Assembly: GCF_050320075.1 (NCBI RefSeq) | Contig: NZ_CP190021.1 | Length of the DNA stretch: 64,000 nucleotides | Reading direction: 5' to 3' (one strand) | From: Escherichia coli | GTDB lineage: Bacteria; Pseudomonadota; Gammaproteobacteria; Enterobacterales; Enterobacteriaceae | Made by a program: the position numbers and the translations under genes | Notes under the pieces: model-generated | The model's input: the letters and a program-made list of their open reading frames with translations, nothing else | Told to the model about the DNA's origin: nothing | The model's database searches: none | In this document: positions 1 to 43,979 of the stretch, piece by piece | How the letters are laid out: every line of letters begins with the position of its first letter | Numbering within the stretch: position 1 is the first letter of the stretch

Positions 1-1077
1 GTGTATAAATACACGGCACAATCGCTCCGCCATAAGCGACAGCTTGTGGCAGGTCTGAAGAATACTCCATATAACGCAGTACACTGGAGTCAGTTAGCAC
101 CCGAAGAGCAGATCCGTTTCTGGGAAGACTATGAAGCGGGAAGGGCGACCACTTTCCTGGTTGAACCGGAAAGGAAGCGCACGAAGCGTCGTCGTGGTGA
201 GCACTCCACCAAACCCAAATGCGAAAATCCGTCCTGGTATCGTCCTGAGCGCTATAAGGCGCTGAGCGGGCAGCTCGGGCACGCCTACAACCGTCTGGTG
301 AAAAAGGACCCGGTGACCGGCGAGCAGAGCCTGCGCATGCACATGTCTCTGCATCCTTTTTACGTGCAGAAACGAACGTATGTCGGTCGCAAATATGCTT
401 TCCGTCCGGAAAAACAACGCCTCCTCGATGCCGTCTGGCCGGTTCTGGTCAGCTTCAGTGATGCGGGCACACATACCGTAGGCATGAGTGTTTCCCGTCT
501 GGCCAGAGAAATCAGCCCGAAAGACAGCAAGGGGAAGGTTATTCCGGAACTGGAAGTGACGGTCTCCCGCCTTTCCCGTTTGCTGGCCGAACAGGTACGT
601 TTTGGTGTGCTGGGTGTTTCAGAGGAAACCCTGTGGGACCGTGAAACCCGCCAGCGTCTGCCACGTTACGTCTGGATAACACCGGCAGGCTGGCAGATGC
701 TGGGCGTCGACATGGTAAAACTTCACGAACAGCAGCAGAAACGACTGCGTGAAAGTGAAATCCGCCAGCAGCTCATTCGGGAAGGTGTTCTGCGTGAGGA
801 TGAAGATATCTCCGTACATGCGGCCAGAAAACGCTGGTATCTGCAGCGCAGTCAGGATGCGCTGAAACACCGTCGTGCGAAAGCAGCAGCCAGTAAGCGC
901 GCCAGACGCCTGAAGAAACTGCCTGCCGACCAGCAGATTCATGAGATGGCAGAGTATCTCAGGAAGCGTCTGCCTCCGGATGAAGCCTATTTTTGTTCCG
1001 ATGACCATCTGAAGCGAATGGCCATCAGGGAGTTGCGTCAGCTTGAACTGACGCTGGCTGCCCCGCCACCGCACTAG
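1..1077 (+). CDS. repZ: Replication initiator RepZ/RepA of I-complex plasmids; ORF opens at window position 1, so the true 5' end is probably upstream
   Basis: 358-aa ORF recognised from memory as IncI1-type RepZ (KRTKRRRGEHSTKPKCENP, C-terminal LAAPPPH); consistent with yacABC, nikAB, trbABC and traL-Y backbone in the same window. Confidence 0.8.
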   Translation: MYKYTAQSLRHKRQLVAGLKNTPYNAVHWSQLAPEEQIRFWEDYEAGRATTFLVEPERKRTKRRRGEHSTKPKCENPSWYRPERYKALSGQLGHAYNRLVKKDPVTGEQSLRMHMSLHPFYVQKRTYVGRKYAFRPEKQRLLDAVWPVLVSFSDAGTHTVGMSVSRLAREISPKDSKGKVIPELEVTVSRLSRLLAEQVRFGVLGVSEETLWDRETRQRLPRYVWITPAGWQMLGVDMVKLHEQQQKRLRESEIRQQLIREGVLREDEDISVHAARKRWYLQRSQDALKHRRAKAAASKRARRLKKLPADQQIHEMAEYLRKRLPPDEAYFCSDDHLKRMAIRELRQLELTLAAPPPH

Positions 1078-41343: not shown

Positions 41344-42552
41344 TCAGAATTCGTTGTCTGTAGCAGGTGTGCGGGGCAGGATGTCGTCGGTGAGGGACCA
41401 GTTGGTCAGGATGCGGCGTTTCCGGTCGCGATCTGGTTGTGGTTCATCCCAGATAAGACCGAGACTGAGCATATCCCGCCGTAAGCCTTCCACCGCTTCA
41501 TCAACACAGGGTTCAGGGCAGGGAAGGCCAAAACGCATGGCTTCGGCCTCTGCACGTGCAACGGCCACCACGCCAGCGCCTTCAATAAATCCTTTCGTGG
41601 TATTGGCGCGGTGTAATGCATAAAACAGCGTCCTGTCCACGCCTTTCAGCCAAATCCAGTTGGGTGGCGTAAGCCGCAGGTCATGTGCATACAGCCAGAC
41701 CAGCCCACTGCGGACGTAGCGATGTTGTTTCAGCCATTGCTGTGCTCCGTTGCTTTTAATCACTCTCTGGAAAGCTGATTTGGCCAGTGAATAAACAGGG
41801 GTACAGAATTTCCCACTGTCCCGTTTGCTTTTAATTCTGCATGAGAGGTTCAGTGTATCCATGAGCTTTAATGCTGCCTTACGATCATCCAGGAAATACT
41901 GAAGACCAAATATGGCAAAGAGCGCTTTTTCATGTGGTGCCATGTCTTTCCAGGACGTTAAAGGTTTACCCAACTGGGCCATGAAACATCGTCTTGCAGC
42001 TGCAACATCGAGCTGCATATTGGTGATGAGAGTATGCTGCTCGACAAATGCTTCCGGGGTGAGAGCAACCCGCCGTTCAGGTCGTTTGCCACCATGAAAG
42101 AGTTTTTCCGGATCACCATCTGCCAGTACAGGGGCGATAGCAGGGGACAACGAAGCAAAGATGTATGGCAGGCGGGTAATATCTACTGGTCTGCGGGTGA
42201 AACGACTTTGTCCCGGATGTTGATACCACTCCCACAAACACCAGAGTGTCACAGGTAAGAGGTACATCCACAGAATACCTATGGTCTGCTCCATGACGTT
42301 AACCCACTGGCTATAGCTTATGTTGGCGGCGTTGTTACCGGTCATGGCAAGCAGGTTGTATCGTGGTGCTGCATAGTTATGAAATGGTCCCCAGTCAACC
42401 AGTCCCCATAAGGTATGAAGAATCAGGCAGCTGGCGTAAACCACTTCCGGCAAGAATAACCATATAACGAATAGCAGCAGGATAAGAAGGACACCAACAG
42501 CGCCCCATATCTGCATAGGATCTTCTGCGACAGGCTGTCGATTGTAAGACAT
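41344..42552 (-). CDS. trbA: TrbA, inner-membrane transfer protein (DotM-like)
   Basis: 402-aa ORF with hydrophobic N-terminus; position in trbABC. Confidence 0.85.
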   Translation of the reverse strand: MSYNRQPVAEDPMQIWGAVGVLLILLLFVIWLFLPEVVYASCLILHTLWGLVDWGPFHNYAAPRYNLLAMTGNNAANISYSQWVNVMEQTIGILWMYLLPVTLWCLWEWYQHPGQSRFTRRPVDITRLPYIFASLSPAIAPVLADGDPEKLFHGGKRPERRVALTPEAFVEQHTLITNMQLDVAAARRCFMAQLGKPLTSWKDMAPHEKALFAIFGLQYFLDDRKAALKLMDTLNLSCRIKSKRDSGKFCTPVYSLAKSAFQRVIKSNGAQQWLKQHRYVRSGLVWLYAHDLRLTPPNWIWLKGVDRTLFYALHRANTTKGFIEGAGVVAVARAEAEAMRFGLPCPEPCVDEAVEGLRRDMLSLGLIWDEPQPDRDRKRRILTNWSLTDDILPRTPATDNEF

Positions 42553-42785
42553 GACAAAGTCTCCATTTCTGGAATTTAAATCAAACGGAAAGGTTAAAAA
42601 TTTATTTGCAGGCGATAAGAGCTAACCAGAGGAATTAGCCGTGTGATAAAAGGATTGTTGCAGATACGAAAGTCGTTAGAATAGCTGCGGGCGCTTGAGG
42701 CTGTATGCCGAAAGCGTTTTGTGGACGGTATACAGCAGAAAGCCCCTGGAGATTTTTTTATCAATCAACCAAGGGCTCTACTGTA

Positions 42786-42989
42786 ATGCCTAGACAACAT
42801 TATAGTAGCCCGATAACCGCCGTAAGGCAATGGAGGGGCTATGATGCCACAGCGAACGTTTTTAATGATGTTAATCGTCATCTGTGTGACGATTCTGTGT
42901 TTTGTCTGGATGGTGAGGGATTCGCTTTGCGGACTCCGGCTCCAGCAGGGAAACACAGTGCTTGTGGCAACGTTAGCCTACGAAGTTAA
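42786..42989 (+). CDS. pndC: Possible PndC (mok-like overlapping reading frame); start uncertain
   Basis: Frame overlapping pndA in the track ORF 42705-42989, as in hok/mok systems. Confidence 0.35.
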   Translation: MPRQHYSSPITAVRQWRGYDATANVFNDVNRHLCDDSVFCLDGEGFALRTPAPAGKHSACGNVSLRS

Positions 42990-42996
42990 ACGTTAA
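42841..42996 (+). CDS. pndA: PndA, Hok-family membrane toxin (type I toxin-antitoxin)
   Basis: 51-aa ORF MMPQRTFLMMLIVICVTILCFVWMVRDSLCGLRLQQGNTVLVATLAYEVKR, read by hand (below track cutoff). Confidence 0.85.
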   Translation: MMPQRTFLMMLIVICVTILCFVWMVRDSLCGLRLQQGNTVLVATLAYEVKR

Positions 42997-43472
42997 CGGG
43001 CAACACGGCGGCAGGTTTTCTGCCGCCGCTTTGTTGCGAAGGCTGACCTCATTGCGCCCTTTCTTCTTCAATGAAGCGTATCCGGTATTGTTTCATTTCC
43101 CCTGAAGCCGATTAGCTCCAGCCGAATGCCTTTGCCATCCGGGGCCACGTTCTGCATTTCGCAGATACCACGTCGGGTCATGAGTGTGAAGGCTGTCATT
43201 GCCAGCATGGCTAACGCATTTTCCTCGCTTCCGCTGCGTTTCTCGAGAGCATCGGCAATTTATTCTATGCTCCCCACCTGAAAGCAAGAGTCGAATTCTT
43301 TACTCCACTTTTCTGACATCGGATTTTCTCTCTGTATTTATGGGTAGTTATCGAACTGAATGTGCCAGTTTTTTCAGGAGACGGCAAAGTTGAGATGGTT
43401 GGTTCTGATTCAAAGCATGAGTTTCCCCGGTGTGACGGGCATGTCGGGCGGATTTTGAGAAACAACAGATGT

Positions 43473-43503
43473 AAAAAAACCGACTGGTGAGGTCGGTTTT
43501 TTT
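43473..43503. terminator. Bidirectional rho-independent terminator candidate (A7-ACCGAC-loop-GTCGGT-T7)
   Basis: Read from sequence. Confidence 0.55.
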
Positions 43504-43526
43504 ACTGTTCCGTTACAGAGTGGGTG

Positions 43527-43747
43527 GCTCTGGTCGGAAAAGAACTGTCTATAACTGACCTGTAGATAGTACGTCTGGAATTATATTTCTGCAAGTACTG
43601 GATAAGTGTATACTCGGCATGTCAGCTCTGAGGCATGTTCTGTCCGGCATATTGTTCAGCGGGAAGAACAGGTTACAAGTCCTGGCCAAAACATCAGGTG
43701 GTGCTGGTTTTGGTGCTCTGGTCGGAGAAGAACTGTCTATAACTGAC
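43527..43747. repeat. Pair of 33-bp direct repeats (43527-43559 and 43715-43747, 32/33 identical)
   Basis: GCTCTGGTCGGARAAGAACTGTCTATAACTGAC read from sequence. Confidence 0.85.
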
Positions 43748-43979
43748 ACTATAGAAACCGTTGTGACAGGCAGTGTAAGAGCGAACAACGGGGTTCTTTC
43801 TCCAGTGATGGAGAAGCGGATGATTAATCTGTTAATCATCGTTCTCAGGGCAGTAGTTGCCGTTGCAAACGCGCTGATTGCTGTTCTGGAACTGATCCGG
43901 GAACTTATCGACTGATAAGCCTGGAAACGTAACTAAGGGCAGGGAGTTACCGCTTCCTGCCCTTTAACAAAAAGAGATC

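Follow-up and report, generated by a model that had tools for sequence, protein, structure and literature searches.

Characterisation of the pnd locus goes back to about 1990, and the locus serves as a standard IncI1 marker. The native locus of plasmid R483 mediates post-segregational killing (Nielsen et al. 1991, as reported in a paper that cites this work). Tagged R483 PndA was reported to be non-lytic in one over-expression study and toxic in another. When pnd was deleted from the plasmid pESBL, plasmid-free cells survived better, and the stability of the plasmid was unchanged by deletion of pnd alone (PMC7602700). To cure the IncI1 plasmid pJIE512b, it sufficed to neutralise its pndBCA locus by an interference plasmid supplying pndB, and an identical pndB was present in all 125 IncI1 sequences examined in that work (PMC5330492). 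The structural model for the family comes from the hok/mok/sok system of plasmid R1, for which the ucb and mok Shine-Dalgarno (SD) elements have been described and in which removal of the fold-back inhibition element (fbi) permits the mRNA to refold into a translatable form that is accessible to the antisense RNA (PMC9841398).

Here we describe a locus of this kind in a 64-kb stretch of Escherichia coli DNA (hereafter the window), to whose coordinates all positions refer unless another record is named. We assign it, with a probability of about 0.95, to pndBCA, an intact type I toxin-antitoxin module of the hok/sok type on an IncI1-type conjugative plasmid. The locus is an intact, ordinary R483-type pnd that is already known in kind; its interest lies in the corrected coordinates. 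The functional unit extends from about 42655 to about 43061 and exceeds the interval originally reported on both sides.

Identity and plasmid context of the locus

The toxin gene pndA occupies 42844..42996 (+ strand) and encodes a Hok/Gef-family membrane toxin of 50 amino acids. All 153 nucleotides of the coding sequence are the same as those of R483 pndA (supplement file 10 of bioRxiv 10.1101/2025.08.07.668861), the product is exactly the UniRef protein PNDA2_ECOLX ("Protein PndA"), and the gene limits are those given by PGAP in identical plasmids. The Pfam model PF01848 (HOK_GEF) matched the 51-aa open reading frame that contains pndA with an E-value of 1.4e-12 and a score of 47.4 bits against a gathering cutoff of 22, while the NCBIfam models HokA and Hok matched PndA below their curated cutoffs (68.8 versus 89 and 44.3 versus 73, respectively). 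The original prediction of a Hok-family toxin gene pndA is in agreement with these results, as is the comparison with R483 pnd that had been proposed as its check. In a motif search, RDSLC...LAYE occurred once in the 64-kb window, where PndA is the sole Hok-like peptide. A chance open reading frame was rejected as an explanation of pndA on the Pfam, Rfam and R483-identity evidence, and an additional hok copy in the window was rejected because both the motif and the Rfam model gave a single match.

A 501-bp segment spanning the locus was compared with plasmid records. The best 25 records showed 100% identity and 801 showed at least 99%, out of 1945 matching records in all, 1898 of which are conjugative plasmids. 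Nearly all of the records are conjugative plasmids of Escherichia, Salmonella and Shigella. In TY474p2, a plasmid with an identical region and IncI / MPF_I typing, the annotated gene order is nikB, trbC, trbB, trbA, Hok/Gef, hypothetical, dqlB, excA and traY, which puts pnd into the IncI1 transfer region, after trbA and ahead of excA. From the identity to R483 pndA and the IncI/MPF_I context, we conclude that this part of the window belongs to an IncI1-type transfer region and that the locus is pnd.

The gene upstream of pnd is trbA (41344..42552, - strand), which encodes a TrbA/DotM-like protein with a DotM C-terminal domain (PF23127, E = 1.6e-49). This gene and the pnd mRNA point away from each other across a gap of only ~136 bp (42552-42689), so that the pnd promoter and the start of the trbABC operon share a short intergenic region. 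On the other side, a hypothetical gene (43068..43319, - strand) converges on the 3' end of pnd. It encodes a conserved protein of 83 aa, and a C-to-A difference from TY474p2 and RCS80_p at position 43262 introduces a premature stop, leaving an open reading frame of only 46 aa in the window.

A second type I toxin-antitoxin module was observed ~500 bp downstream of pnd. It consists of dqlB (43820-43915, + strand), encoding DqlB, a DinQ-like toxin of 31 aa (NF041473, E = 5e-19), and an AgrB-like RNA (43471-43558, - strand; RF02891, 53.7 bits versus a gathering score of 40) whose terminator lies at 43505..43471. Two direct copies of a 33-nt repeat, at 43527-43559 and at 43715-43747 on the + strand, agree at 32 of 33 positions, and the AgrB-like RNA is therefore complementary to the dqlB 5' UTR. 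The dqlB/agrB pair has been validated on pOXA-48 and was reported in 67% of IncI1 plasmids (PMC12365149); its experimental validation concerns only this IncL plasmid. It is conceivable, though we rate it somewhat below even odds, that pnd and dqlB/agrB together make up a double, redundant addiction cassette within the transfer region of IncI1 plasmids. If true, such a cassette would explain why an IncI plasmid stayed stable after deletion of pnd alone (PMC7602700).

Reading frames, leader and predicted antisense RNA

Two adjacent ATG codons, at 42841 and 42844, could start the toxin frame, and a 51-aa open reading frame at 42841..42996 (+) does appear in the mechanical ORF list. The pndA SD sequence GGAGG (42832..42836, + strand), which is conserved in pnd-like variants, lies 4 nt from the first ATG and 7 nt upstream of the second. 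In the IncF, IncB/O and IncK/Z variants (90-92% identical), the first ATG is replaced by GCG or ACG and the second never varies; both PGAP and LT985289 annotate the start at 42844. The conservation of the second ATG, the spacing of GGAGG and the two annotations together indicate that PndA has 50 residues. The 51-residue PndA that had been proposed earlier thus exists as an open reading frame, but a start at 42841 was rejected because this codon is not conserved in related plasmids.

The overlapping mok-like leader frame, pndC, runs from 42786 to 42989 (+ strand, 67 aa). These exact limits are annotated in LT985289. The frame overlaps pndA in frame -1 relative to pndA and its stop lies 7 nt before the pndA stop; its product has no family in Pfam or NCBIfam. 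The presence of a pndC-like frame had been predicted correctly and the relative frame is the same as that of R1 mok, but the start is at 42786 and not at 42705. In the mechanical ORF list, the frame is open over 42705..42989 and gives 94 aa from its first ATG, and a 94-aa "post-segregation killing protein" is annotated in some records (P0018, C7SA41), which would fit a genuine protein gene starting at 42705. We consider such a gene most improbable. In both IncB/O and IncK/Z variants, a 1-nt indel shifts 42705-42785 out of the pndC frame and leaves no in-frame upstream ATG there, so that ATG 42786 is the only start conserved in the four pnd-like lineages; it also aligns with the R1 mok ATG. Moreover, the 42705 ATG is part of the long 5' hairpin, at a distance of only 17 nt from the 5' end of the mRNA, and has no SD sequence, the 67-aa version is found on most contigs, and the 94-aa product matches no protein family. 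The 94-aa pndC was rejected on this comparative evidence, though some database entries carry it. The 67-aa pndC is used below.

The putative promoter of the pndCA mRNA lies at 42655..42682 (+ strand) and consists of a -35 element TTGTTG (42655-42660), a 16-nt spacer and a -10 element TAGAAT (42677-42682). On reading the sequence, TAGAAT is followed by 6 nt and then by G at 42689. The segment TTAGAATAGC at this site is invariant across all pnd-like variants, and in an R1-type hok locus the hexamer TATGAT likewise precedes the GGCGCTTGAGG start by 6 nt. The full-length mRNA of about 373 nt would then span 42689 to about 43061 (+ strand). Its 5' end was set by position 1 of the Rfam model RF01794 and by the conserved GGGCGCTTGAGG, and its 3' end by the end of fbi; the exact ends are placed by analogy with the R1 hok mRNA. 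By the same analogy, the 3'-processed, translatable mRNA is expected to end near 43031, just past the 3' stem-loop.

RF01794 matched 42689..42846 (+ strand) with 134.2 bits against a gathering score of 59 (E = 1e-31). The match is full-length (model positions 1-157 of 157) and is the only one for this model in the 64-kb window; 10 comparison loci are matched as well. The model is named "sok antitoxin", and its match here is on the plus strand, begins at the 5' end of the mRNA and extends as far as the toxin ATG, with AUG as its last three letters. The matched segment is the hok/pnd toxin leader and not the antisense RNA of ~63 nt on the opposite strand. Automated annotation that uses this match therefore labels the toxin leader as the antitoxin, with the wrong strand and the wrong extent.

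Two hairpins were identified in the leader. The long 5' hairpin (42700..42736, + strand) is present in every fold and has compensatory pairs in the RNAalifold alignment, e.g. at columns 15/63, 17/61 and 20/58. The ucb hairpin (42741..42777, + strand) brings the anti-SD sequence ucb (AGCCCC, 42741-42746) together with CAAGGGC (42770-42776) and so sequesters the ribosome-binding region of pndC. The R1 ucb/mok-SD hairpin aligns with it, and the predicted terminator hairpin of pndB is its mirror image.

The antisense RNA pndB (antitoxin) is predicted on the - strand at 42795..42733, with a length of about 60-63 nt and ends good to within 3 nt on either side. The minus-strand fold of the 63-nt RNA has a free 5' tail of 12 nt and a terminator-like hairpin followed by UUUCU (-26.5 kcal/mol), and a slightly longer minus-strand stretch gave a z-score of -5.6. 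The predicted PndB is complementary to the pndC start codon and ribosome-binding region, with the 12-nt tail covering the start codon region. The percentages of pndB target overlap given in the literature, 87.3% and 14.3% (PMC3562002), would fit a target of ~63 nt and agree with the predicted length. A putative pndB promoter is located at 42830..42802 (- strand), with a -35 element TTGCCT (42830..42825), a 17-nt spacer, a -10 element TACTAT (42807..42802) and a predicted start at G 42795. It matches 8 of 12 consensus positions, which is below what the promoter scan reports. The TTG of the antisense -35 element is invariant in nine hok-family loci, and the -10 element fits TAnnnT in eight of the nine (alignment columns 133-162); R1 has TTGCGC-17-TATCCT at the aligned position. 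A sigma-70 consensus scan over 42500-43700 called no promoter at either the pndCA or the pndB site, and both promoters are thus assigned from position and conservation only. The predicted pndB and its promoter (42733-42830, - strand) fall inside the region of ~42700-42840 to which the original prediction had assigned the antisense RNA.

These coordinates are mainly of value for annotation and matter little as a discovery. Because of its small size, pndA can escape annotation under ORF-length cutoffs, pndC mostly lacks an annotation or carries a wrong start, and pndB has no annotation at all. Correct coordinates are also useful for plasmid curing by pndB supplied in trans.

Pairing of the mRNA ends

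The translational activator element (tac, GGGCGCTTGAGG) occupies the extreme 5' end of the mRNA (42689..42700, + strand), and the complementary fbi element, CCTCATTGCGCCC, lies in the 3' UTR at 43047..43059 (+ strand). The two are paired in the full-length fold. Between the pndA stop and fbi, a G+C-rich stem-loop, CGGCGGCAGG-TTT-TCTGCCGCCG (43006..43028, + strand), forms a terminator-like site that is kept in the pnd variants with changes in the loop only. Other hok loci have a hairpin with compensatory changes at the same position (RNAalifold columns 347-369). By analogy with R1 (PMC9841398), this stem-loop is expected to protect the 3' end of the processed mRNA.

The minimum free energy fold of 42689-43064 pairs the ends of the RNA at -164.8 kcal/mol (z = -9.4), and none of 100 shuffled sequences folded as well. 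RNAduplex placed the tac/fbi duplex at stop+45..64 with -22.9 kcal/mol, only ~2 SD better than shuffled 3' UTRs (mean -18.1, SD 2.3), a weak discrimination in the G+C-rich pnd. The case for tac/fbi therefore rests on conserved position and covariation and not on duplex energy.

For the comparative analysis, pnd-like, R1-type, srnB-like, Proteus, Photobacterium and Vibrio loci were used, each anchored by its Rfam match. The R1-type locus L003 (CP134899.1, 1-400; IncF R1-type hok) has an IS150-family insertion in the leader that eliminates the 5' half of the mRNA and with it tac, and it was replaced by L008. An IncHI2 locus (L013) with IS421 downstream and without a clear fbi was excluded from the alignment, and no Rfam leader match was obtained for L014. 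An fbi equivalent was located 45-76 nt after the toxin stop in 8 of 10 loci, and a separate scan placed it at stop+52..65 in the R1-type locus. Across nine hok-family loci, tac position 4 covaries with its fbi partner, being C-G in four (pnd, R1), U-A in three and A-U in one (Vibrio); the srnB-like locus has U-A at tac position 6. RNAalifold on nine mRNAs gave compensatory changes at 31 of 62 consensus pairs, and the consensus structure recovered the end pairing, the long 5' hairpin, the toxin-internal helices and the 3' stem-loop. The predicted fold, the recurrence of the element and its covariation together indicate that the fold-back inhibition element is real. Structure prediction, which had been suggested as a check for fold-back pairing, thus bears it out, but the element does not lie in the leader, where it had been placed; fbi is in the 3' UTR, past the reported end of the locus.

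Instead of fbi, tac can pair with ucb (42740-42746), and the corresponding GCUU/AAGC pairs are contained in the RNAalifold consensus. We compared the predicted energies of the closed form and of an open form in which the tac-ucb pairing was enforced. In the full-length RNA (42689-43061), the closed and open forms have -164.8 and -156.9 kcal/mol, respectively, so that opening costs 7.9 kcal/mol. For the RNA without fbi (42689-43031), the values are -141.8 and -141.3 kcal/mol, and the cost is 0.5 kcal/mol. The open form of the fbi-less RNA is thus predicted to be about equal to the closed form and not favoured over it. As thermodynamic predictions, these tac/ucb energetics agree with the published R1 model.

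Proposed mechanism and comparison with known systems

The proposed mechanism combines features observed in the window (identity to R483, family membership, overlapping frames, end pairing with covariation and closed/open energetics) with 3' processing, translational coupling, RNase III cleavage, RNA half-lives, killing and exact RNA ends as published for R1 hok and R483 pnd, which would apply here by analogy. A stable mRNA of ~373 nt would encode the pndC leader frame and the 50-aa membrane toxin PndA. Newly made mRNA would be inert, with tac and fbi paired and the pndC ribosome-binding site hidden in the ucb hairpin. The fbi would be lost by slow trimming of the 3' end as far as the stem-loop at 43006-43028, and the freed 5' end could then pair with ucb, exposing the pndC start region; pndC would be translated and translation of pndA would be coupled to it. 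In plasmid-bearing cells, the short, unstable PndB would bind the exposed region, block the translation of pndC and pndA and trigger cleavage by RNase III. After plasmid loss, PndB would decay first, the processed mRNA would be translated and PndA would kill the cell.

Several chromosomal hok copies have been proposed to be decayed, non-functional relics, and the same could be asked of the present locus. Inactive relatives do exist, such as the pCTX-M-1.B1 variant, in which a divergent patch destroys the pndA start and truncates pndC, and the R1-type hok locus whose leader is cut by IS150; the unchanged stability of pESBL when pnd alone was deleted points in the same direction. However, the coding sequence here is identical to an experimentally active R483 gene, the locus is conserved at the above level of at least 99% in 801 plasmids, and the window holds every element in intact form, namely both frames, tac/fbi, the ucb hairpin, the 3' stem-loop and the predicted promoter and terminator of the antisense RNA. 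We therefore regard a relic as extremely unlikely and an intact pndBCA module as the preferred reading.

The hok/sok systems have been linked to phage exclusion and stress phenotypes. On this general knowledge of hok/sok, the main role of the locus might be phage exclusion or a stress response and not plasmid addiction, a view that is compatible with the assignment to pndBCA. Neither PndA nor the pndC product matched the PADLOC defence models, however, and the IncI plasmid experiments show a post-segregational killing effect. We consider it quite unlikely that such a role is the main one, and plasmid addiction by an intact pndBCA module is retained as the proposed function.

The closest known system is the pnd locus of R483 (IncI1), which has the same pndA nucleotide sequence, the same PndA protein and the same position between trbA and excA. 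No difference from R483 pnd was detected, where the direct comparison covers the pndA coding sequence and the leader and 3' UTR were judged via identical IncI1 plasmids. The pnd-like loci of IncB/O (R16), IncK/Z and IncF plasmids are ~90-92% identical to the window over the whole mRNA. They have the same tac, pndC start, pndA start and 3' stem, while their fbi is CCTCAATGCGCCC, with one extra pair to tac. They also differ by the 1-nt indel upstream of pndC, by 4-5 amino acid changes in PndA and by the absence of the ATG at 42841. In the variant of pCTX-M-1.B1 (NZ_MW978789.1; IncI-gamma; L007), a divergent patch of ~45 bp lies over the pndA start (1640-1700 of that record). The Hok N-terminus is lost, a product of 43 aa is annotated and pndC is reduced to a few codons; this pnd is probably an inactivated copy.

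Outside the pnd group, the best relatives of PndA are 38-61% identical. An srnB-type locus on an IncF plasmid (L012) belongs to the same Rfam leader family (90 bits) and has a covarying tac/fbi pair, GGGUGU with ACACCC, but its toxin gene is not overlapped by a mok-like frame in frame -1, and its toxin is 45% identical. Compared with R1 hok/mok/sok, the long 5' hairpin is shorter, the SD sequence and the pndC ATG are separated by 9-11 nt (the value varies with the G that is counted) versus 7 nt in R1, and PndA has 50 aa versus 52 aa in Hok. The mok ATG of R1 lies ~60 nt upstream of hok and the mok stop 4 nt before the hok stop. The likeness to R1 extends over the 5' GGCGCTTGAGG of tac, the 3' fbi, the ucb/SD hairpin and the 3' stem-loop, the overlapping leader frame in the same relative frame, and the putative antisense promoter TTGnnn-17-TAnnnT at the aligned place.
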